Below, in pieces: positions 8,051 to 37,585 of a DNA stretch of 64,000 bases. Numbering within the stretch: the first letter of the stretch is position 1; each line of letters opens with the position of its first letter. The stretch comes from Candidatus Omnitrophota bacterium (GTDB lineage: Bacteria; Omnitrophota; Gorgyraeia; Zapsychrales; Fredricksoniimonadaceae). The notes below the pieces were generated by a model that was not told the origin of the DNA, made no database searches, and saw nothing but the letters and a program-made list of their open reading frames with translations. Position numbers and translations under genes: made by a program. Where the stretch lies: assembly GCA_028870995.1 (NCBI GenBank), contig JAGWOI010000002.1:46463-110462 (forward strand), given 5' to 3'.

Positions 8051-10510
<2,460 letters not shown>

Positions 10511-13812: not shown

Positions 13813-13817
13813 AGCCG

Positions 13818-14648: not shown

Positions 14649-14712
14649 AAATTAAGGTAGCGGCACTTTTCTAGGAGTAAATTTTATTAGTTCAATGGAA
14701 GGAGAAAAACGT

Positions 14713-16871: not shown

Positions 16872-16894
16872 GGCTTAAACAAAGAGAGGGAAAA

Positions 16895-17752: not shown

Positions 17753-17757
17753 GGCGT

Positions 17758-19590
17758 ATGAAAAACAAGTTTTTAAAGAGGCTGTCCCTCGTCATGCTGG
17801 GCTTTGCGCTGACCGCCTTTTATTTGCCTCCGCTTTCAGCCGATGAGAATTTCACCATGGACTCCTCGACAACAGGAGACGTCGTTGATATGGTCTCCGG
17901 CGATATCCAGTCCGTCCCTGCCAATGGATTGATCCGGGTATCGGTGACCAATCCCGAGGTGGCCGACATCTCCGACGTGACAGACGACAAGGTTTCATTG
18001 ATCGCCAAGAGGGCGGGGTCAACGGTTTTGTTCATATGGGATGCCGCCGGCAAGCGCAGCGTCAAGGTGCGGGTGGCCGCCGAAGATCTTAATGCCCTCA
18101 AGGAAAGGGTGCAGAAGCTTTTGGAAGAAGCCAACATCAAGGGGGTTTCCGAAGATATCAATCTCGATATCGGCAAGGTCATCCTGACAGGCTCTTTGTC
18201 CAAGGAGGACAAAAACCGGATGATGGACGTCCTGCTGCCCTACAGCGATAATTTGATGAATCTCGTCAAAGAACAAAAAAATGAAGAGCTGATCCAGGTG
18301 GATATGCAGATTGTAGAGATCAACGTCAGCCTGGAAAAAACCCTCGGCATTTTGTGGGGGACATCTTCAGGAGGATCCTCTTCCACAGGCGGTACCAACA
18401 GCGGACAGATAAACCTTAATTACAGCGAAACCATTCCCGGCGGAGACAAATTCAAGGACCTCTTTAAGGTCGGTAATTTTACCCGCGGCTCGTCGCTGGA
18501 GGCTACGGTCAATGCCCTGGTCCAGGAAGGCAAGGCCAGGCTCATCTCCAAGCCCCGCTTGGTGGTGGTCAGCGGCAAGCCGGCGAGTTTTCTGGTGGGC
18601 GGCGAGATCCCGATCCAATCCACCACGGTCAGCACCACCGGCAGCACCTTGACCAATAACACAACCTACGCGGAATACGGTGTCAATTTATCGGTCACGC
18701 CCACCATTAAGGACGGGAAAATCGATGTTTTGCTTAATGTGGACATCCGCGACGTGGATTCGGCCACACCGATCTCCAGTTCGGGAGGCAATGTGGCTTT
18801 CGTCACGCGGACCGCGTCCACGGACCTGCTGCTGGACAATAGGCAGACTATTGCCCTGGCCGGATTGATCAAATATGAAGACAGCGTGACGATGACGGAA
18901 GTCCCGTTCCTTTCCAAGCTGCCCTTGCTGGGCGGATTTTTTAGAAACAGGAGCGAGCCCGCCGATTCCAATACGGAAATGATCATTATCCTGACCCCTA
19001 CGGTGCTGACGGATAAGAAATACGAGCACAAACAGTTGGTCATGCCAACACCCGAGGAGCGCAGCTCCTGGAACGAAATCGATGCGAAGTATGAACATGA
19101 ACCGATCGTGTCTAATTGGCCTCCATCCGTTCAACAGGCCAAGCCGTCTTCGGCAGAGATGCCGTCGTTTGCCCCCTCGTTCCCATTGGCGCCGCAATAC
19201 ACCGGGAATTCGACAACGGTGAACCCGCTGATGATCCCTCCTGTGGATACGGTGGGCCTTCCGGCCACCGCAGCCTATGCGCGCATGGTGCAGGAAAAGA
19301 TCTCCAGAGCCATTCTTTCTCCCCAGGTTTTGAAGGGCACCATGGGAGGCACGGTCAAGCTCAAGCTGCACATCCTTAAAGACGGGTCCCTTGATTCGGA
19401 AGAAGTGGTTCAGTCTTCGGGCAACAATACCCTGGATAGTGATGCCATGAGGGCCGCTAAAACAGCAGCGCCTTTCGCTGCTTTTACCCCCGAGATGGAT
19501 CAGCAGGACCTTGAGTTCACCGTTCCCATCATTTTTAACAGGTTGATTCCGGGAAACCAACCGGCGGAGAAGATCATTGCCTCGCATTAA
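17758..19590 (+). CDS. cpaC: Tad secretin CpaC/RcpA with a C-terminal TonB-C-like domain
   Basis: Signal peptide, BON/secretin_N-like region and secretin core (ARLISKPRLVVVSGKPASFLVGGEIPI). A Pro-rich spacer is followed by a TonB_C-like about 90 aa (KGTMGGTVKLKLHILKDGSLDSEEVVQSSGNNTLDSDAMRAAK...). ATG 17758 has a GAGG SD. The track start 17749 is an in-frame TTG. Confidence 0.8.
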   Translation: MKNKFLKRLSLVMLGFALTAFYLPPLSADENFTMDSSTTGDVVDMVSGDIQSVPANGLIRVSVTNPEVADISDVTDDKVSLIAKRAGSTVLFIWDAAGKRSVKVRVAAEDLNALKERVQKLLEEANIKGVSEDINLDIGKVILTGSLSKEDKNRMMDVLLPYSDNLMNLVKEQKNEELIQVDMQIVEINVSLEKTLGILWGTSSGGSSSTGGTNSGQINLNYSETIPGGDKFKDLFKVGNFTRGSSLEATVNALVQEGKARLISKPRLVVVSGKPASFLVGGEIPIQSTTVSTTGSTLTNNTTYAEYGVNLSVTPTIKDGKIDVLLNVDIRDVDSATPISSSGGNVAFVTRTASTDLLLDNRQTIALAGLIKYEDSVTMTEVPFLSKLPLLGGFFRNRSEPADSNTEMIIILTPTVLTDKKYEHKQLVMPTPEERSSWNEIDAKYEHEPIVSNWPPSVQQAKPSSAEMPSFAPSFPLAPQYTGNSTTVNPLMIPPVDTVGLPATAAYARMVQEKISRAILSPQVLKGTMGGTVKLKLHILKDGSLDSEEVVQSSGNNTLDSDAMRAAKTAAPFAAFTPEMDQQDLEFTVPIIFNRLIPGNQPAEKIIASH

Positions 19591-19840
19591 CCGGTTTATG
19601 CTGATCGTTGCGGCTTGCTTGATGCTTTTCGCCCCCGTGAAGGCGCAAGCGGTACAGGGCGATCTGGATGCTCAAATAGAAAAAGAATTTGTTCCTGTGC
19701 AGCCTAATGCCGAGGCCCAGTTTAATTCGGTGCCGTCGCTGGATGTCGAGAAAGAATTTTCCCCCTTGTCGGTGGACGCCGACAAAGAGTTCGCTGTGTT
19801 ACAGCCGGACGCAGAAAAGGAGTTTTCTCCCGCCCCTTGA
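19577..19840 (+). CDS. small secreted repeat protein with (D/E)KEFxP repeats
   Basis: Signal peptide LIVAACLMLFAPVKAQA, then four copies of EKEF[VSA]P. Function unknown. The start may be the internal ATG at 19598. Confidence 0.45.
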   Translation: MPRINRFMLIVAACLMLFAPVKAQAVQGDLDAQIEKEFVPVQPNAEAQFNSVPSLDVEKEFSPLSVDADKEFAVLQPDAEKEFSPAP

Positions 19841-19890
19841 AGGAATCAACAGCGACAAATTTGCAAAACGTGGTACAATAAAAAGATATT

Positions 19891-22043
<2,153 letters not shown>

Positions 22044-22047
<4 letters not shown>

Positions 22048-22400
22048 TCCTCATGATCACCAATCTCACCCGCCAGACGACCGTTGCCACCGACGTAGAA
22101 ATCGCCAGAAACCTATGGCAGCGCACCCAGGGCTTGCTGGGCCGGGAAGGTCTGCCCCAAGGCCGGGCGCTGATCATTCCCTACTGCGAATCCATTCATA
22201 TGTTTTTTATGAAGTTCCCTATCGACGTGATTTTTTGTGATAGAAACCACAAGGTGGTGGGGCTTTGCGCCAATATCAAGCCTTTTTGCATGTCGCCTAT
22301 TTTCTTTAAAGCTTCCTATGCGATCGAACTGCCCGCAGGCAGCATCGCCTCTTCACATACCCAAAAGGGCGACGCCTTGAAGTGCCCGCCGTTGCCGTAG
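22044..22400 (+). CDS. DUF192 family protein
   Basis: 118 aa, similar in size, composition and tad-locus context to DUF192/COG1430 proteins. The start may be ATG 22053 rather than the overlapping TTG 22044. Confidence 0.55.
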
Positions 22401-22942: not shown

Positions 22943-22980
22943 AAGCGGCTCTTCCCTAAACACGGGAAATCTTAAGGTTG

Positions 22981-23023
22981 TTGACGCTCCATACTTCATA
23001 ATGTTATAATGTCCAGACTGGAC
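22981..23023 (+). promoter_or_regulatory. sigma-70-like promoter (TTGACG, 18-nt spacer, TATAAT) followed by the perfect palindrome GTCCAGaCTGGAC
   Basis: -35 at 22981-22986 and -10 at 23005-23010. The 13-bp inverted repeat at 23011-23023 lies directly before ATG 23028 and is a candidate operator. Confidence 0.35.
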
Positions 23024-23027
23024 ATTT

Positions 23028-24083: not shown

Positions 24084-24278
24084 ATTCCGATTATTTTTGA
24101 GCTGGCGGGGTTGACAGCGTCTATTATATATGGCATACTTCTATCAAAGCAAATCACAGCTTGTATCAACAGCCCTTCGGGGCTTTTACATAGATGAAAG
24201 ACCGTTTTATTTTTCCTCGCTCCTGCTTAAGGCAGGGGGAAGGTCTAATCGATCTTCTGGCACATAAGGTGAAGGACG

Positions 24279-24434
24279 ATGATCCGACTCACGAGAAGCA
24301 CAAAGGCACAAAACTTAATCGAATATGCGATCGTCGTGGCCTTGATCTCGGCAGCGCTGGCGCTGTTGAGTACCTATGTGTTCCGTTCCGTCCAAGCCGA
24401 ACAGAAGATAGTTACTGAGGACTCCTTAAACTGA
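24279..24434 (+). CDS. flp: Flp-family type IVb prepilin (51 aa)
   Basis: MIRLTRSTKAQNLIEYAIVVALISAALALL... carries the Flp motif (small residue, then xxxEY, then a hydrophobic stretch). SD AGGTGAAGGA precedes it. It is below the 60-aa track cut-off, and the overlapping track ORF 24194..24418 is in another frame. Confidence 0.65.
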   Translation: MIRLTRSTKAQNLIEYAIVVALISAALALLSTYVFRSVQAEQKIVTEDSLN

Positions 24435-24456
24435 AAATATTCCTTTGGAGGGAATT

Positions 24457-24711
24457 ATGCATATAAAGAACAAAACAGGTCAAATCACGGTGGAGTATAT
24501 CCTGGTTGTGACCGCGGTTCTTATCGTCATTGTTGCCTTTGTGTCAAATAAGAACGGTCCGTTTCAAAAACAAATGAACGTTACCCTTAATACGGCGCTG
24601 ACCGAAGTGAACGGAGAATCAGATCAGTTAAGCGGTTCTCATCACTGGGGTACTTCGACCGACACTGGGGTGCCCACGGGTGTTACTGTCAATCCGACTA
24701 AAGGGCTCTAA
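24457..24711 (+). CDS. flp: Flp-family prepilin
   Basis: MHIKNKTGQITVEYILVVTAVLIVIV has the G/xxxxEY motif. SD GGAGGG precedes ATG 24457. Confidence 0.75.
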   Translation: MHIKNKTGQITVEYILVVTAVLIVIVAFVSNKNGPFQKQMNVTLNTALTEVNGESDQLSGSHHWGTSTDTGVPTGVTVNPTKGL

Positions 24712-24744
24712 AAACTATTGACAAGCTAATATTAGGAGGAATCT

Positions 24745-25113
24745 ATGTTAAGAAATTTCCTTAAGAATAAAAAAGGTCAACACTTCGCGGAATACGCGCT
24801 TCTGATCGCGTTGGTTGTCGCAGGCATCATCGCCATGCAGACCTATGCCCAGCGCGCCCTGCAGGCCCGTATCCATGATGCGGCGCTGTACATGGCCAAT
24901 GCCACCAGCAATTCAACCGAAGGCATAGGCAACACCACGCAGTATGAGCCGTATTATATGCAAAGCAACTATGACGTCAGCACCAACAGCGTTGATAACA
25001 AACGTTTGGGCAAAGACCTGGTTGAAGCCGACAGCGGCAGCAACCGTTCCAGGACAGGTAGCGAGAACGCCACCTACAATGCTTATGGTTCGAACGCGGC
25101 GGGTCAGGAGTAG
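24745..25113 (+). CDS. flp: Flp-family prepilin with a C-terminal extension
   Basis: KKGQHFAEYALLIALVVAGIIAM. AGGAGGA SD. Confidence 0.75.
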   Translation: MLRNFLKNKKGQHFAEYALLIALVVAGIIAMQTYAQRALQARIHDAALYMANATSNSTEGIGNTTQYEPYYMQSNYDVSTNSVDNKRLGKDLVEADSGSNRSRTGSENATYNAYGSNAAGQE

Positions 25114-25149
25114 GCCTGAATCTCAACGATATATTTAAGGAGGAATCCT

Positions 25150-25482
25150 ATGTTGCAATATCTTAACAACAAACGTGGTCAAAGCTTCCTGGAGTATTCA
25201 GTGATGATCGTCGTGGTCGTAGGCGCGTTGCTGACCCTTCAGGTCTATATCAAACGCGGCGTACAGGGCCGCTTGAAGAGTGCGGCGGATGACATCGGCG
25301 ATCAGTATTCCGATGGCAACAGCAATGTGCTTAAGGTAACCGTCAGGAACAGCGATACCCAGCAGATATTCAATGCCGGGAATTCTTCGACAACGATGTT
25401 GAAACCGGAAACGACCAATACCACCGAGAACTCGTTGATCGTAAATACCCAGCAAGAATTCTGGGGCACCAAGCCGGAATAG
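25150..25482 (+). CDS. flp: Flp-family prepilin (candidate major pilin)
   Basis: KRGQSFLEYSVMIVVVVGALL. AGGAGGA SD. Followed by a strong hairpin. Confidence 0.75.
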   Translation: MLQYLNNKRGQSFLEYSVMIVVVVGALLTLQVYIKRGVQGRLKSAADDIGDQYSDGNSNVLKVTVRNSDTQQIFNAGNSSTTMLKPETTNTTENSLIVNTQQEFWGTKPE

Positions 25483-25489
25483 CGCATCA

Positions 25490-25519
25490 AGAAGAGGGGG
25501 ATGAAAATCCCCCTCTTCT
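25490..25519 (+). terminator. 12-bp perfect stem-loop (AGAAGAGGGGGA-TGAAAA-TCCCCCTCTTCT) without a U-tract
   Basis: Arms 25490-25501 and 25508-25519, 8 nt after the pilin stop. It may be a partial terminator or an mRNA-stabilising hairpin. Confidence 0.5.
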
Positions 25520-25540
25520 CTAAATATAGAGGACAAACGC

Positions 25541-25732
25541 ATGCGCGATAGACAAGGCCAAAGCCTGGTGGAATATATCCTATTGGTCACGGCCGTGACC
25601 GTGGTGGTGGTCCTGTTCACCACGGGCAAGGGCAAAGGATCTTTTCAAAATACCCTTAATCAGGTCTTTAATCAGACCACACAGGATATGCTCAACGCGT
25701 CTACTTATTTGCAACAGAACGCGGCGAATTGA
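25541..25732 (+). CDS. flp: Flp-family prepilin (63 aa)
   Basis: MRDRQGQSLVEYILLVTAVTVVVVLF. Confidence 0.7.
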   Translation: MRDRQGQSLVEYILLVTAVTVVVVLFTTGKGKGSFQNTLNQVFNQTTQDMLNASTYLQQNAAN

Positions 25733-25780
25733 AGTGCCCCATAAGCCATGCGTAAACGCAGCAAAGAAATGAGGCGGGGC

Positions 25781-26578
25781 ATGAACAATAAAGGGCAATC
25801 CATTCTGGCAGAACATGTGATGGTTTTTTTCGTGGTGATCGCCGCCATCACCGCCATTTCTGTTTTGGTGCAGCGCGGCCTGCAGGCCCGCATCCATGAG
25901 GCCCGGAATTTCGCCGTCGATTCCGTCATCAATGCCTGCGATATCAATTGCCTGAAGGCCACCGGGCGGATCCCCCACGAATACGAGCCTTACTATATGG
26001 TGACAACGGCGAATATTCAGACCAACGAGGCCCAAGCAGAGGGAACAACGACGGGGAACCCCCAGGCATTAGGGGTAAAGTACCTTACCAGCGAGAACAC
26101 ATCCACCCAAATAGGGTCAAATTCCATCCAGCTCCCTGCTATATGCAGCGGCCCCTACCCTCCGATATGTTGCCATGACGGCACGGGATGCCGCTCATGC
26201 TCACCAATTTCAGGTCATAGCTGCGGCCCAGACACTTGCGGAAATGCGAATGGCAGCGGGAGTTGTAATCCTGACGGGCCGCTAGGAGATCCTCATTCGG
26301 GAACCTGTGATACTTCGACCTGGCAATGCGACCCGTGTCATTGTCAAGTTTATACGGAATCGACCTTAGAAGGCATGTGTCCTGCAACCTATACGGCTGA
26401 CTGTGGAGCGGATTCATGCGGGCATGCCGACGCCTGCGGCTCCTGCGGTTCTTATACATGGCCATATGACGGAAAAACTTATACGACGTTCTGTTCTATG
26501 GGACGGTGTTGGTTTGTAAACCCTTATGACCCTGGTCATGGGTGGAATTGCGCCAATTGCGCCCATCCTTGTTTTTAA
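25781..26578 (+). CDS. Flp-like prepilin fused to a roughly 200-aa cysteine-rich C-terminal domain
   Basis: NNKGQSILAEHVMVFFVVIAAITA resembles a prepilin N-terminus. It shares LQARIHEA and HEYEPYYM with the 24745 pilin. The C-terminal half has more than 30 Cys (CSGPYPPICCHDGTGCRSCSP...CANCAHPC). ATG 25781 is in frame and preceded by GAGGCGGGG. Confidence 0.65.
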   Translation: MNNKGQSILAEHVMVFFVVIAAITAISVLVQRGLQARIHEARNFAVDSVINACDINCLKATGRIPHEYEPYYMVTTANIQTNEAQAEGTTTGNPQALGVKYLTSENTSTQIGSNSIQLPAICSGPYPPICCHDGTGCRSCSPISGHSCGPDTCGNANGSGSCNPDGPLGDPHSGTCDTSTWQCDPCHCQVYTESTLEGMCPATYTADCGADSCGHADACGSCGSYTWPYDGKTYTTFCSMGRCWFVNPYDPGHGWNCANCAHPCF

Positions 26579-26601
26579 AAGGTGCAAACGTGAGGAAGGG
26601 A

Positions 26602-26961
26602 ATGGTTTTCTCCCGGAGGGCACAGACGATATTGGAATACACGATGCTTGTGAGCATCCTGATGCTGGTGCTTTATTACATGGGTGCGGCCATCAAGCGC
26701 GGGGTGCAAAGCGTTGTCAAGGTGACGGCGGACCAGGTAGGCAACCAGCAGAACTCCGATCAGGATTTTACCAACCCCGAGACGGGATATATGGTGGGTT
26801 CCAATACGCAGATGCAGGACGCCCATAACGATTGGAATGCGGAAACGGGCTACATCAGCAGCGATGGGACCAGGCATTTTATGGCGACGTCAGGGTATAA
26901 TGAGTCGACGTACACCTCGACTCAGTCCATCACCAATGGGGGATTTACGCCCGCGCAATAA
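26602..26961 (+). CDS. Flp-like prepilin
   Basis: MVFSRRAQTILEYTMLVSILMLVL. SD GAGGAAGGG lies 3 nt before ATG 26602. The track ORF start 26542 overlaps the previous gene. Confidence 0.65.
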   Translation: MVFSRRAQTILEYTMLVSILMLVLYYMGAAIKRGVQSVVKVTADQVGNQQNSDQDFTNPETGYMVGSNTQMQDAHNDWNAETGYISSDGTRHFMATSGYNESTYTSTQSITNGGFTPAQ

Positions 26962-26979
26962 AGAGCAAGGACAAGGCCT

Positions 26980-27297
26980 ATGCATATTCGTCGAGGACAA
27001 ACGATTTTGGAGTACACGGTCATCATGATCATCATCATCGGTGTTTTGGTGGCCATGAAGGATTATATCAAGCGGGGCATTCAAGGCCGGTGGAAGGCCT
27101 CGGCGGACAATTTAGGCAGCCAGTACGACCCGCAATGGGTGAGTTCCAATATCCAATTCGCGGCACAGACGAATTCAACATCTATCGTACAGGTCACTCA
27201 GGCCAGCCTCGCTGGTGTCGAAGGGCAGTTGACGGCGCGTACAGATGCGACGAATTCTTTGGAAACAAAGACAGGAACTTCACAGGTAGGGAATTGA
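26980..27297 (+). CDS. flp: Flp-family prepilin
   Basis: MHIRRGQTILEYTVIMIIIIGVLV. Its stop overlaps the next gene's start (TGATG). Confidence 0.7.
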   Translation: MHIRRGQTILEYTVIMIIIIGVLVAMKDYIKRGIQGRWKASADNLGSQYDPQWVSSNIQFAAQTNSTSIVQVTQASLAGVEGQLTARTDATNSLETKTGTSQVGN

Positions 27298-29480
27298 TGA
27301 ATGGAGCCAGACATCAGGCGAAGGGACAGGCCATCACCGAACTTGCCGTGTTCGGAGCGATCCTGATCTTTATTCTCGGGACGATCATCCGCACCGCCGT
27401 GAGCAACGGCTATCAACAGGACGTAAGCTTTAAGGCCATGCGTATGGCCATGTTGGCCTCCTGGAATGATTCCAGGGCCAACCCGGGCTCCGGTCCGCAG
27501 GTGACAGCCCATAACAGCGCCACGGTCCTTTTCGTCGAGGACAGGCTCGCGCCTGATTACGGCAAATACGGCAGCATGGACCGCAATCCTTTCATGGTTT
27601 CCGGATCAGGGACATTTTCATACAATCTGCTTTACCCCATCAACAATGATGACCCGGCTGACATCAAAAACAGCCTTCCGATCATGGATGTTTACATTAA
27701 CGGCCAGCATTTTCCATTCACACTGGCTTCCTATGTCGCCAACCGGCGCATTTGCCCTCCTGGTCAGTGTGCTGAATTTCCGGCTTGCGGCGACGGTACT
27801 CCCATGACGCCTGCCCAGGCCCAGGCCCAATGCTTGAAGGGTTGCGGCGGCGAAACAGACCTTTCCTGTGCCCAGCAATGCCAGCTGGCGGCGGTCAGCC
27901 AGTGCAAGCTCAACCAGTGCATGCGCAATCGCCGGGAGTGGGGCGGGTTAGGGACAGGGCTTATCAGCACAGGGATGGAAAACAGCCAAAGCAACCTGGC
28001 GGCTGTTACGGAAAAAATGTTCGACACCAATAGTCCGGCTGTCGCCCCCATCACCGCAACCACGGCAAGCGTAAGATTAACCCAGCAGTCGGACAATGCG
28101 TGCACCATTTTCACCGACCTCCTTAATGCCGGCGTCCTGGCCAATCCAACGTCAAGCACCTATTGCAGCGGCAATACCCAGGCGACGGTGGACTTACAAT
28201 GGAGTTCCGGCTGGCCTCAGTTCGAAAGGGCCTATGAAAGAGATTTTCAGTTGACAGCCAGGCAGGCCGTTCCTTATCTGGTGGCCATCGAAGGTCTTAT
28301 CTCGCCCGCAGGCAACGGCCGGTTTAAGCTGTTTTACACCTTGGTGGCCAATCCCGGCGGAACGCCGGACGCATCTAATAATTCTTCAAATATGTCATTC
28401 AGCACCACGGCCCCGTATTGCAGCGCCCATGGCAGCACGGCCTGCAGGAACATGGAATTGTCCAGCGACGTGCCCCTGTTGGACTATTGGGGCAAGCCTA
28501 CTACAGATGGCTCTGGTTCTTCCATCAACAGCAATGGGGTCATGCAGTATGACCTTTACCGCATCGCCGACTATTCCCAAACCGCTGAAAATGACGCTGC
28601 CGGCAAATTTACCGACGGGGTGCTGTATCAATTCCCCCCGTGCGCTGCAGGCAGTCCCTGCATGCGCAACTTCATTGCCTGGCAATGGGCGGCCACGGCC
28701 GGTACATCTGCAGCAGAGATCGGTCTTAGCAGCAGTAACCATGTCTACCCCACATATGACATTGACGGCCGGCTGAAGGAAGTGACGATTTATAATCTTA
28801 CGACCGATTCGTCTCATCCTGGCTGGCCGGTCGTGGACTATGTCGATGAGCAGGGAGGGGATATCGACGGCACCTGGGATGTAAATTCCTGCAGCCCTCA
28901 GCCCGGGCTTCAGTCTCAGCAGCAGGTCTTTACCTTTACCAAAAACAGCGCCAATGCCACCAATAACGGCAAAGGCACCTACCTGTTGATTCAGGACGGT
29001 AAATTGTACAATCCGGAAACCAATCCCGACGGCAGCCATACCTTCGTGCGCAGCGCCAACAAGCGGGACACCATTGATCTGATCCAGCGGGTCATTCAAC
29101 TGACCAACAATACCGGCCGTTTTTGTTCCAAAGGAGGAGGCACGCCGCAGCTTTGCAATGCTGCCTGTGTCACCAATCTCAACAGCTGCACGGCCGCCTG
29201 CGCTACCGGGACGAATAAAGCCGCCTGTTTGACAGGATGCGCCAACGCTAAGGGGGACTGTGATTCGGCTTGCGCCAATCCCAATCCGGTTGAGGTCTGC
29301 GTTAACCAGACAGGCTGTCCAGACGGGCCGTATTGCAATTGTTTCAGCACTCAGGACAATATTAAATCGACCTGCTATGATACTGTGCAAAACAAGATAT
29401 TTGTACGCAGCCGTATTGAAAACCGGCGCGGCTTTATGTGGGCAACCAACACGTCGGGACGTTACCAAGTGGGGCGCTGA
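27297..29480 (+). CDS. large cysteine-rich protein with a TadE-like (class III signal) N-terminus
   Basis: MNGARHQAKGQAITELAVFGAILIFIL has the G/xxxxE motif and a hydrophobic helix. It has 727 aa and many Cys, including CxxC pairs. It is coupled by a 1-nt overlap to the upstream pilin gene and the downstream gene. Confidence 0.65.
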   Translation: MNGARHQAKGQAITELAVFGAILIFILGTIIRTAVSNGYQQDVSFKAMRMAMLASWNDSRANPGSGPQVTAHNSATVLFVEDRLAPDYGKYGSMDRNPFMVSGSGTFSYNLLYPINNDDPADIKNSLPIMDVYINGQHFPFTLASYVANRRICPPGQCAEFPACGDGTPMTPAQAQAQCLKGCGGETDLSCAQQCQLAAVSQCKLNQCMRNRREWGGLGTGLISTGMENSQSNLAAVTEKMFDTNSPAVAPITATTASVRLTQQSDNACTIFTDLLNAGVLANPTSSTYCSGNTQATVDLQWSSGWPQFERAYERDFQLTARQAVPYLVAIEGLISPAGNGRFKLFYTLVANPGGTPDASNNSSNMSFSTTAPYCSAHGSTACRNMELSSDVPLLDYWGKPTTDGSGSSINSNGVMQYDLYRIADYSQTAENDAAGKFTDGVLYQFPPCAAGSPCMRNFIAWQWAATAGTSAAEIGLSSSNHVYPTYDIDGRLKEVTIYNLTTDSSHPGWPVVDYVDEQGGDIDGTWDVNSCSPQPGLQSQQQVFTFTKNSANATNNGKGTYLLIQDGKLYNPETNPDGSHTFVRSANKRDTIDLIQRVIQLTNNTGRFCSKGGGTPQLCNAACVTNLNSCTAACATGTNKAACLTGCANAKGDCDSACANPNPVEVCVNQTGCPDGPYCNCFSTQDNIKSTCYDTVQNKIFVRSRIENRRGFMWATNTSGRYQVGR

Positions 29481-29746
29481 TGAGGATACGCGGTCAAAAA
29501 GCTCAGTCAACCATCGAATTCACCTTCGCCGTGGTGGTGACTATGTTCTTGATCTATGGACTGGTGATGGTTTTCCGTTGGGCGGGCCTGGACCTGGCCA
29601 ACCGGCGGGTGATGCAGGACATCACGTTGACGAATAGTGCTGACCCGTATAAAGAACTTAGCTCGGACGACTTTTATTTTTTGCCGATGAGTGCTGTTTA
29701 TCACGGCAGCGTTACAGGGAAAGATCTCAATGAGCAAACGAACTAA
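29480..29746 (+). CDS. TadE-like pseudopilin
   Basis: MRIRGQKAQSTIEFTFAVVVTMFLIYGLVMV has the TadE-like N-terminal motif. 88 aa. The start overlaps the stop of the previous gene. Confidence 0.6.
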   Translation: MRIRGQKAQSTIEFTFAVVVTMFLIYGLVMVFRWAGLDLANRRVMQDITLTNSADPYKELSSDDFYFLPMSAVYHGSVTGKDLNEQTN

Positions 29747-32471
29747 TAAAAAAGGGCAAACGGCGTTGATCCTGGTGCTGCTGTCGGCAGCGGCCCTGGT
29801 CTTTCTGGCCATTACCTATAATTGGGGGCGTGTGGCCCAGATCAAAAGCCTGCTGACCATCTCTGCGGACCAGTCCGCATCCCTGCTGGCTTCGGATGCC
29901 GCCAGTTACGGTGAACAAGAAAAACAAACAAGTTTGGGCGACAGCAACAAGGTCTCCGGGATGAGCGGCCTGCTGATGGACGTCATCCTCGTGGTCGTTA
30001 TCATCGTCATCATCGTTATCGAGATCGTTTCTTGGGGGTCGGCAACGCCGTTGGTGACCACCTTTTTGGGGTTGTGTCTTACGCTGGCCTTGGTCATGGC
30101 GGTGGTGACGCTGGTTTTGCAGTTGACCGTCATCCAGCCCGGAATGTGCGAACTATGGAATAAGCTGCAGAAAAGCCAGCCCATCGTACAGCAGTTTTAT
30201 GAAGGGGCGGTGGGGCCGGCCCTGCAGGGTGCCGTCACCGACCAGGTCAGGCTTACGGATTATTTCGATGAGAACGCCAACGGGCTTTTCGGCGTGCAAA
30301 CCAATTCCGGGTCGCCCACGGCCAGGGACACCATCCCCCGGTTCGGGTTCTTTTATACGGAACGGTTAAAAATGCTTAACAAGAACGTGGGGTATATTCC
30401 GCAGGCGGTTTTCTTCTATGATCAGCTAAGAGAATTTATCGGCGGGCAGACCTGCCTGCAAAATTTCAGCGACAATAAAAATTATCCGGGGGTGCCGCTC
30501 AATCCCAGCTGCATCGATCCGGCGACAGGCAATGATTATTGCGCCGAAAGCACGACGGACCCGGCTTGCACCGGCCCCATACCGGTTCAGATCACCTGCG
30601 CCCAAAATGTTTACGAGAGCAATCAGCTTCAGGTTTACCTGAACCCGTCCTGCAGCTCTTGCAACAATTCTTACACGTCCACGTCTAATTATTCAGACTA
30701 CGCTTCCAAGCCGGCGTGCCGCATAATGGTCAATAACAACTATAGTTTCCAGCTCAATGATTCCTGCTCGGACCCGAGCAACCCTTATTGCAATCCCTGC
30801 TGTCAGCCTCTTGCCCAGAAAGGCTCCAGCTCAGGGAGCACAGTGTATAAGCCCCTGCGCCCGGCCTCATGCTATCCGTACAACCAGGGCCTTCTTCCGA
30901 CGGTTTGCGCCACCAACCCAACCGCTAAAGACAAAAAGACCGGGCTGCCGTTGTGCTCTCAGATCAGTGGTCCCGGCGGCGATCCCATCAATGGCGGCTT
31001 TGGCGCGCCATCGGAGTGTTATACCGGCAACCCCTATGGCACGGCATCTCCCAATCCCTATACGCTGATCTATGATCCGACGTATCAACAGTATGCCAAC
31101 GGCATATCCTTCCTCGATCAATACGGCCGCGATCAACAGTTGATGCAGCCGACGGCCACGTCCGTACCCTTGGCCGGTATGACGGTCAAGGGGGAGTTTC
31201 CCAACGGCATTTATCCTTTCTTTTGGCTGATGGACATGAATCCGCAAACAAATTCAGCGGACCCCAATGCCTATAAGGCCCCCAGCAACTATTTCAGCCC
31301 GGAAGTGGATAAGATCGACCCGACCAATTGCAACAATTATTTGCAAACATCGTCATGGTACCATTGGTGCGTGGCCCAAAGCAATTCCAGCTGCACGGTA
31401 CAGGGTACCGGCAACAGAGGGGTGCCTCCTGTCAGTTCTCCTTCATCAACGGCATTTCCTGATTTAAATCAACTGAGGCTTTCCTACACCTGCCAGGGCA
31501 AGGACTGCTGCGTTAACTATCTGCCCGACTCCTCGGGTACGAACAGCAGCACGACGCCATCCAATACCTTGACAATCAATGCTGCCACAAACAACAGCAG
31601 CCCCGTGACGGTTGTGATAACCGCTGTCTCTTTCACCGCCGCTACCGCCGGGCAGACAGACAATATGGGTACGCTCCAGATCTCTTTTACAGCTTCAGAT
31701 AATTCCGGGAGCAACCCCATAGTAAACGTTGCCTTCTTTCTGACGCCACCGGGAAGCGCGAATGACAATAACATTGCCAGCGTTGCCTATGATACCAGCC
31801 AATCCAAATATGTATTCCAAGGCCAATATGTAAATCAAAGCGGATCATCGCTTTCTACGCCATACACTCCGGAGCAGACTACGGTTACGGGGACAGTCGA
31901 TGTCAAGATCCCGACGTGTTTTTCAGATCCGTCGGCCCCGCCGAACACGTACTATACCCTGCCCACAGGAGATTACTCCCTGGCAGCCATGGCGCAGGAC
32001 GCCGGAGGGTATAGCGGAAGCACGACAGCGCCTTCTTCCGTGACAATGACCGACCAAAATGCCTGTGCGTACAGCAATGCCAATTGCGGGGAAGACATAT
32101 GCGGCAATTCCTGCGGCAGCTGCCCGACCGGCACAAATGAAAGCTGCTCGACGACAACAACGCCGGGTACTTGTGGGTGCACGTACAGTCCTACTCCTGG
32201 GAATTGCGGGACAACCACCTCCTTGGTGTGTTGTGCTTCTGCCGCGGATGTTTGTCACAACAGCACATGCTGCACACCGGCTTCGTCCTGTCCGACAGGG
32301 GACAATTGCGGCAGTGTTTCGGACGGCTGCGGCGGAACAATCAACTGCGGTTCATGCACCTCTCCGCAGACCTGCGGCGGGGGAGGGACTGCGAATGTTT
32401 GCGGATGTACGCCTAATTGCAGCGGGGTACCTACAGGAGGGAGCAACGGCTGTAACGGGACATGTCCCTAA
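29730..32471 (+). CDS. large (913 aa) cysteine-rich protein with a pilin/TadG-like N-terminus
   Basis: MSKRTNKKGQTALILVLLSAAALVFLAI, then a hydrophobic stretch VILVVVIIVIIVIEIV. Cys-rich throughout, with a C-terminal CG/CxxC-rich tail. Confidence 0.6.
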   Translation: MSKRTNKKGQTALILVLLSAAALVFLAITYNWGRVAQIKSLLTISADQSASLLASDAASYGEQEKQTSLGDSNKVSGMSGLLMDVILVVVIIVIIVIEIVSWGSATPLVTTFLGLCLTLALVMAVVTLVLQLTVIQPGMCELWNKLQKSQPIVQQFYEGAVGPALQGAVTDQVRLTDYFDENANGLFGVQTNSGSPTARDTIPRFGFFYTERLKMLNKNVGYIPQAVFFYDQLREFIGGQTCLQNFSDNKNYPGVPLNPSCIDPATGNDYCAESTTDPACTGPIPVQITCAQNVYESNQLQVYLNPSCSSCNNSYTSTSNYSDYASKPACRIMVNNNYSFQLNDSCSDPSNPYCNPCCQPLAQKGSSSGSTVYKPLRPASCYPYNQGLLPTVCATNPTAKDKKTGLPLCSQISGPGGDPINGGFGAPSECYTGNPYGTASPNPYTLIYDPTYQQYANGISFLDQYGRDQQLMQPTATSVPLAGMTVKGEFPNGIYPFFWLMDMNPQTNSADPNAYKAPSNYFSPEVDKIDPTNCNNYLQTSSWYHWCVAQSNSSCTVQGTGNRGVPPVSSPSSTAFPDLNQLRLSYTCQGKDCCVNYLPDSSGTNSSTTPSNTLTINAATNNSSPVTVVITAVSFTAATAGQTDNMGTLQISFTASDNSGSNPIVNVAFFLTPPGSANDNNIASVAYDTSQSKYVFQGQYVNQSGSSLSTPYTPEQTTVTGTVDVKIPTCFSDPSAPPNTYYTLPTGDYSLAAMAQDAGGYSGSTTAPSSVTMTDQNACAYSNANCGEDICGNSCGSCPTGTNESCSTTTTPGTCGCTYSPTPGNCGTTTSLVCCASAADVCHNSTCCTPASSCPTGDNCGSVSDGCGGTINCGSCTSPQTCGGGGTANVCGCTPNCSGVPTGGSNGCNGTCP

Positions 32472-32496
32472 ACGGAGGGGATAGGGAATTTAAAAT

Positions 32497-35442
32497 ATGC
32501 GTTATCTATGGTTCTTAATTATGTTGATTATCATTCCAGCCGCGGCGTCGGCCGAGGGCTGCACGTTGAATGGCAACAACATTTGTGTGGCCTGTCCCTC
32601 TCAATGCAGCATGGCAAGCGGAACATGTTCCTGCACACCTGGAACGACCGTGACGCTCATAGCTACGATCGGCAGCGGGACCCCTTCTCAGAGGATATCT
32701 TTTTATAATAATGGGGCCTTGCTGGGCCAGGGGATTTTCCAATCCTGCACCACCGGTTCATGCACAGCCTGCACAACCAGCGATCCGTGCACCTATACCT
32801 ATGATTTTAATATGCCGGGATGTGCGGTCGGCACGCCCTGTCCGGCGTATTCTATTACCGCCTCTACCAGCAGCACCAATGCTACAGGGTCAAATACCAA
32901 CGGTCCCATTGATCTGGTCGGCAGCAATGAATACCCGAATTTTAAATATGACGGAACGAATTTTAATCCCGCGCTGGACCATAATTTTTCTCATAACAGT
33001 ACCGACTATTGGGTGGCCGGGGACAACCAGATGTGTATGACCAACTGGCCTTATAACGGCAAGACAGCGGCTTTTCCCGACGGAACCTGCGAATGGTTTG
33101 ACGGTCCTGCCCCCTGCAGCGGGAGCGCATGCACCAGCGCCTCCAGGACGCCCTCCCCTCAAAGCACGGTATCCAGCCTCAATGATGTGCTGCACACCTT
33201 TTCGGATTTTGACAAATTCGCCCAATCGATCCTCGGCAAGAGCCTGGAGACCACCACCTCGAGCTTTCACAGCATCTACACGCAAATTGCTGCGTGGGTC
33301 GCTCCCCAATGCGGTTCAGGCAGTTGTCAGCAGGTTAAATGTGCCGACGGCAGCACATGCGGCGCCAACGGGCTGTGCGGGGACGGGGTAACAACCTGCG
33401 ATGCCTGCGCTTTCAACAGGGACAACTGCAACCCCGATGGCCCGGGACGGCTGCTGAGTATTTACAATCCCTATGTGAGCCCGCCGGTGGACAAGCTTAA
33501 AGATTGGAATACAGTCATCACCAGCTGGTTGAATACATCCTTTACCGCAAGCGGGGCCACCAGCAAAATAAGCGGATCTAGTTCTTCCAATCCCGCCGAA
33601 TGGTGTCTGCCCGAAAGAACGGACATGGCTTCCGATGCAACAGAACTTTATTATATCGATAAGAATGCACCGACGGGGACGTGGGGCGACCTTCCGCATG
33701 TGCTGGCCTGTCTAAAATACAATGCCGGTCCCACCAGCGCAGAAACGGCGAACTATTCAGCCTGCGCAAATTCCCTGGTGACCAACAATAGCTGCCTGGA
33801 GAATTTGCCCTCGTCATGTTCGCCGACGGTTTTGTCGACCCCGCTTTTGCCGGCCCCGTCCTTTACTGTCACAGACAGCAACAGGTGTAATGTGTGCAAA
33901 GACGGCAGCTTATGCGGCAGCGGCGGCACAGACAAATGCCAGGACGGCAGCGCCTGTGTCGAGGGGACCTATGCGGACTGGGTGGCCAATCAGTACAGGT
34001 ACGGACCCATTTATAATTACCAAACCTGCTTGAATGTACTTAACGGCGGCTGCGATGACGGCAGCGTCTGCGGCAGCGGCGGGACCAATCCCAATAAATG
34101 TGCAAACGGTAAGACATGCGGCCCCTGCGGCACGACCAATAATTCTTATGCGTCGCAGTCAAGTGTCTGCGCCGCATCGGTGCTGGGACGCTCCTTGACC
34201 GCGGCCTACAGCGGAAGCCGCGGCTGTAACAACACCTTTAAAACCTGGGTCCAGAACAACCTCACGCTTTTTAACGATGAAAGTCCCAAATTCGCCTTGC
34301 GTTATGCGTACCTCAAGGACGTCTATGACAGGGCTATTACACTGCAGCGGATAACCGCTGATGCGGACTATGCACTGCACAACTTCTTTAAGCCCTGCAG
34401 CGGATGCGCCTACGGTAATTGCGGGGACGGCGGCCCTAACAAATGTGGCGACGGCAGCGCGTGCGGGCAGTCGTTATGCCCGGACAACACCACCTGCAGC
34501 TCCGACAGCGATTGCAGCAACGGCGGCTCATGCAATCAATGCGCCGACGGCGGACCGGTGGCCCAGATCATGTATGCACGGACCCAGAAAAAGACCACTG
34601 CCACCCTGCCGAATTCGGTCATCTATGGATGGAGAGACAAGCCCACCTTGGGGCAGTCGCCGTGCGGAACTGCCTGTTCGGACAACAGCCTGTGCGGCAG
34701 CGGCGGCACAGGCAAATGTCAGAACGGCAGCGCGTGCCAGCCGCTGGGCTGCGAGCACATTGTCAGGGTCACGGCCTTCTCGCCCGGCCGCACCGGCGGT
34801 AACGGCGTCTTTCAAGACAGGCTGCCGTGGATCGATTCCTATACTTCCGATTGGGGATTCACGCAGAACTATGAATTGACCCAGCGTGACGGTTATGTGT
34901 ACGTCGGGATAGAGCGCTGGGACCAGCCCCATACCAGTGCGGTGGCCTTCCCTAACAAACGTTCTTTGTGGCAATTCATGTTTACGAATCCAGGAGCTGC
35001 CCAATCCAACATTTCTCAAGACACGGATCCCATCGATGCCTGTTCAACGACGGCGTATTCCCAGTTCGGCCTTCCGGCAGGCCAGAAAATAGGACTTGGC
35101 ATCACGCAGCAAATGGCAGAAGGGCTGGCTTATTATAGCAGCAAGGGCCAGTTATTGGCGCCGGATGTGGATGCACTGGGCGGGGCATTTATGCTTAACG
35201 ACAGGTCTAATGGAGGGAGGATCGATCCTTTTGCCGTCGCACATGGGGCCGGCGTCGGCGGAGACTGCACGCGGGCGGTTTCGGCCTTGCTGGAAATGGG
35301 GGTCAAGAGCCATGCCTGCGCCAGGTATGTGGCGGACATCAGGTGTCCTGCCGGAGGGTCGGACTCGGGAGCGGGCGATTATTGCATTCAGTTTGTCGAC
35401 TGCAATAAATTGGGCAGCACACCGACCAGTGACGGCCCTTAA
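32497..35442 (+). CDS. secreted 981-aa cysteine-rich repeat protein (candidate adhesin)
   Basis: Sec signal MRYLWFLIMLIIIPAAASA followed by EG. Recurrent DGSxCGSGGTxKCQxGSAC modules. GGAGGGG SD. Confidence 0.65.
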   Translation: MRYLWFLIMLIIIPAAASAEGCTLNGNNICVACPSQCSMASGTCSCTPGTTVTLIATIGSGTPSQRISFYNNGALLGQGIFQSCTTGSCTACTTSDPCTYTYDFNMPGCAVGTPCPAYSITASTSSTNATGSNTNGPIDLVGSNEYPNFKYDGTNFNPALDHNFSHNSTDYWVAGDNQMCMTNWPYNGKTAAFPDGTCEWFDGPAPCSGSACTSASRTPSPQSTVSSLNDVLHTFSDFDKFAQSILGKSLETTTSSFHSIYTQIAAWVAPQCGSGSCQQVKCADGSTCGANGLCGDGVTTCDACAFNRDNCNPDGPGRLLSIYNPYVSPPVDKLKDWNTVITSWLNTSFTASGATSKISGSSSSNPAEWCLPERTDMASDATELYYIDKNAPTGTWGDLPHVLACLKYNAGPTSAETANYSACANSLVTNNSCLENLPSSCSPTVLSTPLLPAPSFTVTDSNRCNVCKDGSLCGSGGTDKCQDGSACVEGTYADWVANQYRYGPIYNYQTCLNVLNGGCDDGSVCGSGGTNPNKCANGKTCGPCGTTNNSYASQSSVCAASVLGRSLTAAYSGSRGCNNTFKTWVQNNLTLFNDESPKFALRYAYLKDVYDRAITLQRITADADYALHNFFKPCSGCAYGNCGDGGPNKCGDGSACGQSLCPDNTTCSSDSDCSNGGSCNQCADGGPVAQIMYARTQKKTTATLPNSVIYGWRDKPTLGQSPCGTACSDNSLCGSGGTGKCQNGSACQPLGCEHIVRVTAFSPGRTGGNGVFQDRLPWIDSYTSDWGFTQNYELTQRDGYVYVGIERWDQPHTSAVAFPNKRSLWQFMFTNPGAAQSNISQDTDPIDACSTTAYSQFGLPAGQKIGLGITQQMAEGLAYYSSKGQLLAPDVDALGGAFMLNDRSNGGRIDPFAVAHGAGVGGDCTRAVSALLEMGVKSHACARYVADIRCPAGGSDSGAGDYCIQFVDCNKLGSTPTSDGP

Positions 35443-35454: not shown

Positions 35455-35796
35455 ATGCGAATAACCAATAAAAAAGCGGCTTCCATTCTCGAGTTCGTGG
35501 GGCTTTTTCTTATCATCATCACGGCCTTTCTGATCATGAGAAACTACATCCAGCGGGGCATTTACGGCGCCTCAGCCAAGGCCGGCCGAAGTTTTGCGTA
35601 CGGCAGGCAATATGACCCTCAAAAAACTATTGAATGCGCCTTTGATGACGTCACCAACCAGTGGTATGATTATAATTGCTTTGAATATTATAAAAGCCTG
35701 GACGGCTGTAACAATGTCAGCTGTAGAACAAATATTATCGTTAATAATTGTGGAGCAACCAGCGGCAGTTATTGCAATAATTTAGGAGCCCCCTAG
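35455..35796 (+). CDS. Flp-like prepilin with a Cys-containing C-terminal part
   Basis: MRITNKKAASILEFVGLFLIIITAFLIM. Shares YIQRG...YDPQ with the 25150 and 26980 pilins. Confidence 0.6.
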   Translation: MRITNKKAASILEFVGLFLIIITAFLIMRNYIQRGIYGASAKAGRSFAYGRQYDPQKTIECAFDDVTNQWYDYNCFEYYKSLDGCNNVSCRTNIIVNNCGATSGSYCNNLGAP

Positions 35797-35814: not shown

Positions 35815-36675
35815 ATGATCCTCATTGTTTCTTTGGCCTTATTATTCGCATCAGTTTACCTGCTGGTCGTCAACCTTGCCCCGCTGGCCGCTGCCAAATA
35901 CAACCAGATCAATGAAACGCAGGCCCAGTCGGTCGTCGGGAAGGTGGACCGGTACCTGCGCGAGGATGAAATCAAGAAGCTCTACCGTCTGACCGTATTT
36001 GGTCCGGTGGCCATAGGGATCGTCGGTTTTATCGTCTTTCCCGGGGATACCCATTGGGCAGGGCTTTTGATCGGTGCCGTCTGCGGGTTTATCCTGCCGC
36101 GCATGTATGTCAACCATTTGGTCAAGGGCCGCGCCAAAAAATTCGATGACCAGCTGATCGACGCCATCATGATCATGTCCAGTTCTTTCCGCGGAGGCTT
36201 GAGTCTGGTGCAGGCCTTTGAATCGGTTGCCGACGAGATGCCTGATCCAGCCAAAGGCGAATTCGGCATCGTTTTGGGGGAGAACAAAATGGGCGTGTCT
36301 TTGGACGAATCCCTTAACCGGTTTTACCGGCGCATGCCTTCTCCGGCCATGCAGCAGATGGTGACCGCCATTTTGCTGGCGCGCGAGACAGGCGGCAACC
36401 TGCCGGTCATTTTCTCACGCATCGTCAACAGCACCCGAGAACGCAAAAAAATAGAAAAGAACCTGCAGACCCTTACCCTTCAAGGCAAGATCCAGGCTCT
36501 TGTCATGACCGGCCTGCCCATATTTTTCTTTTTTACCGTCTCAGGATCGAACCCTCATTTTTTTGACACCATGCTTAATTCGGAGATGGGGCACAAACTT
36601 CTTATTATTTGCGCAGTCTTATGGATATTAGGGGCGTTAACCGTCATGAAAATATCGACGTTCAAGGATTTCTAA
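35815..36675 (+). CDS. tadB: Flp pilus assembly inner-membrane protein TadB
   Basis: 286 aa with the T2SF-like domain and TM pattern typical of TadB. Confidence 0.8.
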   Translation: MILIVSLALLFASVYLLVVNLAPLAAAKYNQINETQAQSVVGKVDRYLREDEIKKLYRLTVFGPVAIGIVGFIVFPGDTHWAGLLIGAVCGFILPRMYVNHLVKGRAKKFDDQLIDAIMIMSSSFRGGLSLVQAFESVADEMPDPAKGEFGIVLGENKMGVSLDESLNRFYRRMPSPAMQQMVTAILLARETGGNLPVIFSRIVNSTRERKKIEKNLQTLTLQGKIQALVMTGLPIFFFFTVSGSNPHFFDTMLNSEMGHKLLIICAVLWILGALTVMKISTFKDF

Positions 36676-36676
36676 T

Positions 36677-37585
36677 ATGGCCCTAGCCCTTTTGCTTTTT
36701 TTTCTGGCTGGTTTTGGTCTGATCATTGGGATTTGGCCTCTGGCCATCGATAACCGGCCAACATTAAAGATGTCCGATGATCCCTTTGCGGATTTAAGAC
36801 CGACGGGCGCGCCGGTTAAAAGGAAGGGGCTGGCGGCCGCATTCTCGGCAGTGACCGGCAAGCTGGCCATATTCAACCGGCCCCTGGCAGCCTCCTCTAC
36901 GGGCAGGCGCATGTTTAAGGACCTGTCCACCGCCCGGATCAACATGTCGGTCGAAGAGTTTTTTCTTCTTAAGGAGATCCTGGTAGGCGGCATGGTCCTG
37001 CTGGCTTTCAAGCTGGGCAGCGGCAGCGATTTCTTTACATTTTCTCTCTTGATGAGCATTGCCTTGGGCTACATGCTCCCGGAAATGTGGCTTAAATCGC
37101 GGATCAAGAGGATCAAGGATGATATTCTGAGGAATTTGCCCGATACTGTGGACCTGTTGGGGCTTTGCGTCAATGCCGGGCTGGATTTTATGATGGCGTT
37201 AAAGTACGTGGTCGAAAAATCAAAACCCACCGTCATTATTGACGAGCTAAGAAATATGATGCAGGAGATCAATGTAGGCAAGCCCAGAAGGGATGCCTTA
37301 AGGGACCTGGCCAAGCGCTATGACCTGCCTGATTTGTCCACCTTTTCCCGTACCTTGATCCAGGCTGACCGCATGGGAACTTCGGTTACAGAAGCGCTCA
37401 ACATCCTCTCTGAGGACATGCGTGAGGCCCGTTTCAGGAGAGGGGAAGCGTTGGCTCTAAAAGCCCCTTTAAAGATGATGATACCTCTGCTCTTTTTTAT
37501 TTTCCCTGTGGTGGCCATATTGGTTGCAGGTCCAGTATTCTTAGACTTCTTCCAAAACAATCCTCTCAAAAACCTTGGTCATTAA
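36677..37585 (+). CDS. tadC: Flp pilus assembly inner-membrane protein TadC
   Basis: 302 aa, a T2SF-like paralogue immediately after tadB. Confidence 0.8.
   Translation: MALALLLFFLAGFGLIIGIWPLAIDNRPTLKMSDDPFADLRPTGAPVKRKGLAAAFSAVTGKLAIFNRPLAASSTGRRMFKDLSTARINMSVEEFFLLKEILVGGMVLLAFKLGSGSDFFTFSLLMSIALGYMLPEMWLKSRIKRIKDDILRNLPDTVDLLGLCVNAGLDFMMALKYVVEKSKPTVIIDELRNMMQEINVGKPRRDALRDLAKRYDLPDLSTFSRTLIQADRMGTSVTEALNILSEDMREARFRRGEALALKAPLKMMIPLLFFIFPVVAILVAGPVFLDFFQNNPLKNLGH

Follow-up and report, generated by a model that had tools for sequence, protein, structure and literature searches.

Minor pilins described or modelled at the tips of Tad pili offer the closest parallels to a set of large proteins, here called A, B and C after the three large open reading frames (ORFs) studied, that are encoded in a 64-kb stretch of Omnitrophota DNA (the window, within which all positions are numbered). 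In the Kil Tad pilus of Myxococcus, interchangeable tip complexes are formed by minor pilins resembling TadE, TadF and TadG (Herrou et al. 2025, PMC12075869), the largest of which, KilN, carries a distal domain of unknown fold with many predicted disulfides (PMC12075869). CpaL/TadG has been modelled at the tip of the Tad pilus of Caulobacter (PMC12607857), and according to the proposal of a 2026 study, what completes a tip complex is a C-terminal beta-strand, which GspK and CpaL provide in cis and the Sec-exported PilY1/PilC in trans (PMC12918778). The Tad system of Bdellovibrio bacteriovorus includes a TadZA fusion, described as atypical, and has no peptidase in the locus (10.64898/2026.07.08.737194).

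Omnitrophota are widespread, uncultured and ultra-small bacteria thought to live as predators or parasites, and the chief hints in their genomes at how other cells are attacked come from their Tad locus and the adjacent giant genes. Both the Tad system and the giant ORFs of the phylum are known (Seymour et al. 2023, PMC10066038), as is a conserved 'T2SS-like' locus (one resembling a type II secretion system) with class III signal genes upstream of the giant genes (West-Roberts et al., 10.1101/2023.11.21.568195). The proteins A, B and C are left unannotated or are not discussed in these two works and in a 2026 preprint, where descriptions of the locus cover the machine genes and the small class III signal genes, and pili are not mentioned in the 2025 limonene paper. 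New here, beyond the known Tad system and giant ORFs, are the families formed by the large proteins, the existence of one of them in fused and split forms, and their faster evolution. With slightly better than even confidence, A, the small pilin p102 and B-C are read, together with the small pilin-like proteins p276, p139, p105 and p113, as the complex that forms the tip of, or initiates, a Tad (type IVc) pilus of the predatory type in Omnitrophota.

Two families at an invariant position in Tad loci

The three ORFs all exist with the extents given in the original prediction, which was made from the sequence alone: A at 27297..29480 (+ strand, 727 amino acids (aa)), B at 29730..32471 (+, 913 aa) and C at 32497..35442 (+, 981 aa). 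Their products are identical to proteins of the corresponding metagenome-assembled genome (MAG) at NCBI, namely KGK03_01390, KGK03_01400 and KGK03_01405, respectively. The NCBI annotation of C begins eight codons downstream of the first ATG (MRY...), which is the better start since it is conserved in orthologues. The claimed overlaps of 1 nucleotide (nt) between p105 and A and of 17 nt between p102 and B are present, and the stop codon of A also overlaps the likely ATG of p102 (29480) by 1 nt. The product of p102 (29480..29746, +) is a small TadE-type minor pilin that begins MRIRGQKA/QSTIEF... (here and below, a slash marks the predicted cleavage site). The possibility that A, B and C are not real genes was rejected on the grounds of conservation and synteny.

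At 90% clustering, homologues number 90 for A, 60 for B and 13 for C, all of them unannotated and originating from Omnitrophota MAGs or from metagenomes. When one genome per GTDB species was scanned, family A turned up in 62 loci, which belong to Omnitrophota or to ENA MAGs labelled 'uncultured Planctomycetales' or 'Planctomycetia', with the addition of one 3-kb contig labelled Saccharibacteria. Many of the ENA 'binchicken' MAGs titled 'uncultured Planctomycetales' (L007-L010, L013, L019 and others) carry the locus at 35-50% identity, and these titles probably do not reflect the phylum; the Saccharibacteria-titled contig with family A is L054, of 3.4 kb.

Gene order across the 62 loci, established by tblastn of every gene of the window, follows one invariant pattern wherever the flank suffices: RcpC, secretin, TadZA, DUF192, g351 (a 351-aa gene), small pilins, p276, p139, p105, A, p102, B(+C), p113, tadB, tadC. 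The same order was retrieved in four independent exact-protein look-ups, the most distant homologue of B included, and p102 separates A from B at all loci whose flank is long enough. The placement that characterizes TadG and CpaL, in the tad locus beside genes of the TadE/F type, is found in the invariant string p105-A-p102-B(C)-p113-tadB-tadC. Homologues are encountered only inside Tad loci and at the same position (62/62 species loci), and the anticipated co-occurrence with Tad loci is thereby borne out. Families A and B-C thus appear to be restricted to Omnitrophota, apparently existing only in Tad loci. As judged by sequence comparison, the large proteins are two conserved, phylum-restricted families with pilin-type N-termini, one of which occurs in fused and split forms. 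The three large proteins of the original prediction are real and cysteine-rich, but they amount to two units, B and C being halves of one gene in most relatives.

B and C as two halves of one gene

Several alignments indicate that B and C together represent a single gene, which most relatives keep undivided and which is split in a minority that includes the window. Proteins of 1046-1390 aa align in BLASTP to residues 1-600 of B and then to residues 130-975 of C, and several of the matches of C are the same proteins as those of B. B(1-600) and C(130-980) lie in a single ORF at 24 of the 30 decidable species loci, while most of the undecidable loci also present single ORFs of 1000-1700 aa reaching p113. 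A B-C profile run against 1.84 billion representatives recovered 722 clusters, 376 of them at E<=1e-30, and most of the best 150 of the 722 match the profile end to end. True splits are those of the window and of four species loci (L002, L005, L008 and L048), and in each split locus the second gene opens with its own AxA-type signal peptide. In L037 (11576-15659, a long-read MAG), a frameshift interrupts B-C within the conserved part of B and not at the domain junction, the break being a sequencing error or the sign of a pseudogene.

In the split forms, material has been gained on both sides of the junction: B has acquired aa 601-913, a stretch rich in beta structure with a Cys-rich tail, and C a signal peptide followed by a Cys-rich/beta N-terminal part (aa 1-130). 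In the window, the conserved part of B (aa 1-600; 29730..31529, +), the counterpart of the undivided protein's N-terminal half, is followed by a lineage-specific C-terminal part (aa 601-913; 31530..32471, +) made of the beta-rich stretch and a tail of 135 aa that contains 25 Cys (CGxxCGxC type). The signal peptide of C (aa 1-19, AAASA/EG) and its lineage-specific Cys-rich/beta part (aa 20-130) together occupy 32497..32886 (+), and the conserved part (aa 131-981; 32887..35442, +) is equivalent to the undivided protein's C-terminal half. These junction parts (aa 601-913 of B, aa 1-130 of C) are undetectable even in the nearest species (for the C part, none at 1e-4), or, for the B part, seen at most in the closest relatives, and the C-terminal part of B and the N-terminal part of C have no similarity to each other. 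Some fused relatives carry Big_7 immunoglobulin (Ig) domains at the B/C junction. The C-terminal end is conserved in fused and split forms alike as ESHxCAxYxAS...DYSLKFVDC, and C of the window ends KSHACARYVAD...GDYCIQFVDC.

Leaders, signal peptide and cysteine content

Class III leaders had been claimed for A and B, and they are present in both. A short basic leader ending in Gly or Ala, followed by a hydrophobic helix of ~20 residues, is found in A (AKG/QAITELAVFGAILIFILGTII) and in B (KKG/QTALILVLLSAAALVFLAIT). The leader of A, MNGARHQAKG/Q, leads into the mature start AKG/QAITELAVFGAIL, i.e. AKG/QAITELAVFG, with Glu at +5; of the 69 members of family A, 36 have Ala and 30 have Gly at -1, and Glu15 (+5) is invariant in all 69 sequences. 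The leader of B, MSKRTNKKG/QTALILVLL, has Ile, not Glu, at +5, and the N-terminus of its family, GQTALILILLxAAALIFLAITLNWGRI, is nearly invariant. Glu+5 is likewise missing from apical subunits, of which GspK is one example, and from many TadG proteins. A six-frame scan of the 64 kb for a prepilin-type motif ([GA], Q/A-x3-E and a hydrophobic stretch, in this order) gave 11 copies, always on the + strand and between 24306 and 35476; outside the Tad locus, the six frames of the window contain zero copies, so that the motif is confined to the 11 sites in the Tad locus.

The third protein has no prepilin leader. C begins instead with a Sec-like signal, MRYLWFLIMLIIIPAAASA/EG, with an AxA site (AAASA/EG), assigned by hydropathy and the AxA rule only. 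The combination that marks proteins of the PilY1/PilC type, namely a Sec signal on a large non-pilin gene among minor pilins, is seen in C, whose 981 aa are encoded between B and p113, as well as in the split orthologues. A Sec signal is also what substrates of the T2SS carry, and C, perhaps with A, could be taken for a secreted effector or toxin delivered by the system and not a structural part of it. This explanation is very improbable, given that the region homologous to C is covalently joined to the pilin-like B in most species and that A has a pilin leader and not a Sec signal.

The Cys content of the large proteins reaches 4.1% in A, 5.5% in B and 6.5% in C, compared in the same window with 0.4-1.4% in DnaA, DnaN, GyrA, GyrB and TadZA/B/C and 0.07% in the giant ORF that follows tadC; the family median is ~2.5-3.5%. 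Contents of 4-6.5% fit putative periplasmic or extracellular proteins stabilized by disulfide bonds. In C, a CGSGGT-type module of the form C-x-[DN]-[GN]-S-x-C-G-[SDA]-[GN]-G-x(2-5)-C-x-[DN]-G-x-x-C occurs in five copies, near aa 282, 467, 519, 637 and 727 (33340..34752, +; aa 282-301, 467-487, 519-541, ~634-661 and ~723-752), in blocks whose alignment occupancy among relatives is 0.08-0.39. The Cys-rich modules of A (aa 161-200 and 601-680) fall in blocks occupied by 8-40% of relatives (<=64% in aa 641-680). Given this low occupancy, the Cys modules are lineage-specific loops inserted into a conserved scaffold. The Sec signal and recurring Cys modules ascribed to C are accordingly retained (by hydropathy and the AxA rule, and as five copies), while the notion that the modules form the core of the family is not.

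Searches against known families and predicted folds

Pfam and NCBIfam scans returned no match for A, B or C, and a Pfam scan of 69 family A members revealed no shared family, only two isolated weak single-member matches. Profiles of both families found nothing among PDB sequences, and fold comparison with the PDB gave no match for the bodies beyond long helices, no propeller being among the matches. For C, there is no Pfam PilY1 match, no match to a PDB sequence and no beta-propeller. No enzyme family is matched by the bodies of A, B and C, by sequence or by fold, so that homology to unrelated enzymes, foreseen in the original prediction as an objection, was not found. Annotated genes from plasmid records served as TadE, TadF and TadG comparison sequences; in hhalign, TadE and TadF of Azospirillum align with family A over leader and helix only (E 0.014 and 0.093). 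A paralogous relationship between A and B was rejected, hhalign aligning leader and helix only.

The two families differ in their predicted anatomy. A has one hydrophobic helix (aa 13-31), and its AlphaFold2 (AF2) model (pLDDT 76, pTM 0.74) shows a 55-residue N-terminal helix (6-60) followed by five strands, then helical inserts and a C-terminal half that is rich in beta structure, the last strand being conserved. Invariant residues of family A include Q11, E15, the acidic cluster D517/D522/D524 and five Cys. The acidic cluster lies within VDEQGGDIDGTWD (aa 517-524, window 28845-28868), possibly a metal- or calcium-binding loop. B has three hydrophobic helices (aa 11-29, 82-100 and 112-130), conserved across its family and followed by a Cys-containing body. 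In the model of the fused homologue P0102 (pLDDT 82.9, pTM 0.69), the N-terminal part comprises a helix (4-65), a short strand (71-75) and three further helices up to residue 156, after which come an irregular region containing Cys, a domain of helices, one of them 50 residues long, and a C-terminal domain rich in beta structure. The bodies of A and B-C are candidate new folds, because the models are confident and yet have no fold match in the PDB.

Because the conserved extra hydrophobic hairpin gives B three hydrophobic helices, a membrane-anchored role has to be considered for it. B, or the undivided B-C, would then be a periplasmic part of the Tad machine anchored in the inner membrane by three transmembrane helices (a scaffold, a gate or an alignment element), on which C would dock, leaving A and the small proteins as the only genuine minor pilins. 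The conservation of the three helices across the B family and the P0102 model, which contains no beta-sheet pilin head after helix 1, both suit this view. It is unlikely, though the strongest of the rival views, when set against the very strong conservation of the prepilin-type leader (basic stretch, Gly, Gln), the location of the B gene among minor pilins, and a distal half that evolves fast and carries variable Ig and Cys insertions, unusual in an internal scaffold. Moreover, TadG, CpaL and KilN, at the same position of their loci, are read as tip proteins (PMC12075869, PMC12607857).

Evolutionary rate and the proposed tip complex

Rates were compared through the identity of the window proteins to those of the nearest species (L005). 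The machine is the most conserved (TadZA 86%, TadC 82%, TadB 80%, secretin 72%), the small minor pilins stand at 68-70%, and the large proteins range from 66% for the conserved part of B and 62% for A to 51% for the conserved part of C. Among these groups, the large proteins evolve fastest, as expected for exposed, interaction-prone parts. Their pilin-type N-termini, their place among minor pilins and their faster divergence relative to the machine fit candidate tip or adhesin proteins. Of the adhesin or tip complex 'of a new type' put forward in the original prediction, the novelty in sequence and fold is upheld, whereas the kind of system is already known and the tip location of A and B-C is inferred.

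In the proposed tip complex, the inferred steps of processing, incorporation into the fibre, reassociation of B with C and adhesion would proceed as follows. A and B would enter the inner membrane via their pilin-type N-terminal helices, and their leaders would be cut after Gly or Ala by a prepilin peptidase encoded elsewhere. The helices of A and B would then bundle with those of the small minor pilins, prime the fibre and end up at its distal end, where B, being without Glu+5 as in GspK, would be the top (apical) subunit. In most Omnitrophota, the B-C unit is a single chain, like TadG, CpaL and KilN; in the split lineage, C would leave through Sec and meet B again in the periplasm, much as the Sec-exported PilY1/PilC joins the minor pilin PilK, a step that might be mediated by the conserved C-terminal element of C. 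The disulfide-stabilized bodies of A and B-C would form an exposed, fast-evolving surface touching prey or host cells.

Several results weigh against such a tip complex. The Pfam family of TadE (PF07811) matches neither A, p102 nor B at E<=0.1 and none of 69 family A members; PF13400 (Tad, TadG N-terminal) matches none of A, B and C; a vWA domain with a MIDAS motif was not found (no Pfam vWA match); and the window, despite 12 pilin-like genes, yielded no gene for an A24 prepilin peptidase. Resemblance to TadG gives an ambiguous picture. A profile of seven TadG N-termini aligns in register with the N-terminus of the B family over 46 columns (P 8.7e-4, score 24.8), with the common register G-hydrophobic-(D/N)xGR-...-AAD; 30 column-shuffled controls reach at most 13.5, but the reversed-sequence control, at 23.5, scores about as high and is not beaten. 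The earlier statement that none of the proteins resembles canonical TadF, TadG or vWA proteins agrees with the lack of Pfam matches and is too strong in the case of B, whose leader and helix are in register with TadG N-termini (the reversed control having a similar score).

Setting of the locus and the giant ORF

The window opens with ndk, parB, parA and yidC (minus strand), followed by dnaA, dnaN, gyrB and gyrA, a tRNA-Glu, four metabolic genes, a Rotamase_2 peptidyl-prolyl isomerase and the Tad locus. The replication-origin neighbourhood (ndk, parB, parA, yidC / dnaA, dnaN, gyrB, gyrA) spans window positions 525-12984, and the Tad locus begins ~10 kb from dnaA. In Velamenicoccus archaeovorus LiM, the Tad locus occupies 12382-29832 of the genome (CP019384.1), apparently again not far from where the record begins (Seymour et al. 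2023, PMC10066038).

The upstream block of the Tad machine (16895..22400, +) encodes RcpC (16895-17752, +), a secretin (17749-19590, +) whose C-terminal domain (aa 531-597) is TonB_C, a TadZ-TadA fusion ATPase (19891-22047, +) and DUF192. The secretin with TonB_C recurs in loci L002-L004. The fusion, of 718 aa, unites a ParA/CbiA-type TadZ and a T2SSE-type TadA in one protein and is conserved in related loci. After TadZ-TadA come DUF192, a helix-turn-helix (HTH) gene, the 351-aa gene, the pilin array, A/B/C, p113, and the tadB-like and tadC-like genes. The 351-aa gene, g351 (23028-24083, +), has weak HTH_32/transposase-HTH matches and a GC content of 0.445 versus ~0.54; it holds a constant position (DUF192-g351-pilins) in almost every related locus and is therefore probably a component of the locus and not a mobile element.

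The array of small Flp-type pilins (24279..25732, +) consists of 24279-24434 (51 aa), 24445-24711, 24745-25113, 25150-25482 and 25541-25732. The 51-aa ORF at 24279-24434 (+), with the leader KA/QNLIEYAIVV, is probably a Flp-type pilin, and L002 has two 51-aa genes here; an overlapping 74-aa ORF at 24194-24418 is probably spurious. Three conserved pilin-like genes, p276, p139 and p105 (25748..27297, +), lie directly upstream of A. The first of these, p276 (25748-26578, +; 276 aa, leader NKG/QSILAEH), is the most Cys-rich gene of the Tad locus (24 Cys, 8.7%) and is found upstream of p139-p105-A in nearly all loci. Downstream of C, p113 (35455..35796, +) encodes a Cys-containing pilin-like protein of 113 aa (KKA/ASILEF), conserved directly before tadB, and the TadB-like and TadC-like platform proteins, with T2SSF domains, occupy 35815..37585 (+).

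Directly after tadC, a giant ORF (37804-63999, +) of more than 8732 aa runs off the end of the window; the giant gene called in L002 has 42,417 aa. The ORF of the window shows a Peptidase_C39-like match at aa 255-319, the only peptidase match near the Tad locus, and, close to the end of the window, a weak match to a DEAD helicase. In 18 of the 25 related loci with enough flank, tadC is followed by a conserved N-terminus of a giant ORF, and a T2SS-like system is conserved upstream of Omnitrophota giant genes (West-Roberts et al., 10.1101/2023.11.21.568195), the same association being made in the 2026 preprint. These data would accord with a locus that serves as a type II-like secretion or docking device, in which a pseudopilus tip made of A and B-C binds, exports or anchors the giant protein and does not contact prey directly. 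Such a device is improbable, as the locus bears the hallmarks of Tad (TadZ-TadA, RcpC, two TadB/C-type platform proteins and pilins of Flp size), not those of Gsp, and about one-quarter of the loci have no giant ORF within the flank.

Comparison with known tip complexes

Within the tip complex favoured here, the best-supported reading of B-C, drawn by analogy, is that of a putative counterpart of TadG, CpaL and KilN. The large proteins are then concrete candidates for the surface that contacts prey, and the fused and split forms of B-C constitute a natural test case for the proposed completion of the minor-pilin complex by tip proteins, in cis or in trans. A joint reading goes further and is rather doubtful. 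B-C would be a new class of type IV filament cap, in which one protein gives three hydrophobic helices (the pilin helix and the hairpin) in place of a bundle of three minor pilins and bears a distal body of 700-1500 aa of unknown fold; the Tad pilus would be physically linked to the giant protein in predation; and the lineage of the window would have undergone a natural cis-to-trans split, with the distal half travelling via Sec. Were this cap to exist, the split of the window would be an evolutionary intermediate between tips of the TadG/GspK type and those of the PilK+PilY1 type.

Four described systems can be set beside these proteins. GspK of type II secretion resembles B-C as the largest minor pilin, devoid of Glu+5, and caps its fibre as B-C would, but no homology to B-C was detected and GspK has a single hydrophobic helix and ~300 aa. 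The pairs formed in type IVa pili by PilY1/PilC and the minor pilins PilK/PilX recall the split form, in which C, of ~1000 aa, is a Sec-exported non-pilin encoded among minor pilins and beside the pilin-like B; C differs in having no beta-propeller and no similarity of sequence or fold, the setting is a Tad system, and only the fused orthologues point to B and C as partners.

The similarities with TadG/CpaL of Aggregatibacter and Caulobacter (PMC12607857, PMC12918778) are those of a large pilin-like protein of the tad locus, with a leader lacking Glu+5, a conserved extreme C-terminus and an N-terminal helix in register with that of B (the reversed control scoring similarly). Unlike them, B-C is devoid of vWA/MIDAS, of a PF13400 match and of a predicted beta-sheet pilin head, is twice the size and has a body fold with no known match.

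The comparison with KilL, KilM and KilN of Myxococcus xanthus concerns gene arrangement, size and Cys content only. The Omnitrophota set is larger, with seven conserved pilin-like genes, and its protein at the TadG position is unlike KilN in having 1000-1700 aa and two extra hydrophobic helices and in being encoded by two genes in some lineages. In both cases, minor-pilin genes that stand side by side in the Tad-type locus of a known or probable predator encode one small and two extended pilins, of which the largest bears a distal domain without PDB homologue and with many predicted disulfides, and the distal parts are variable.

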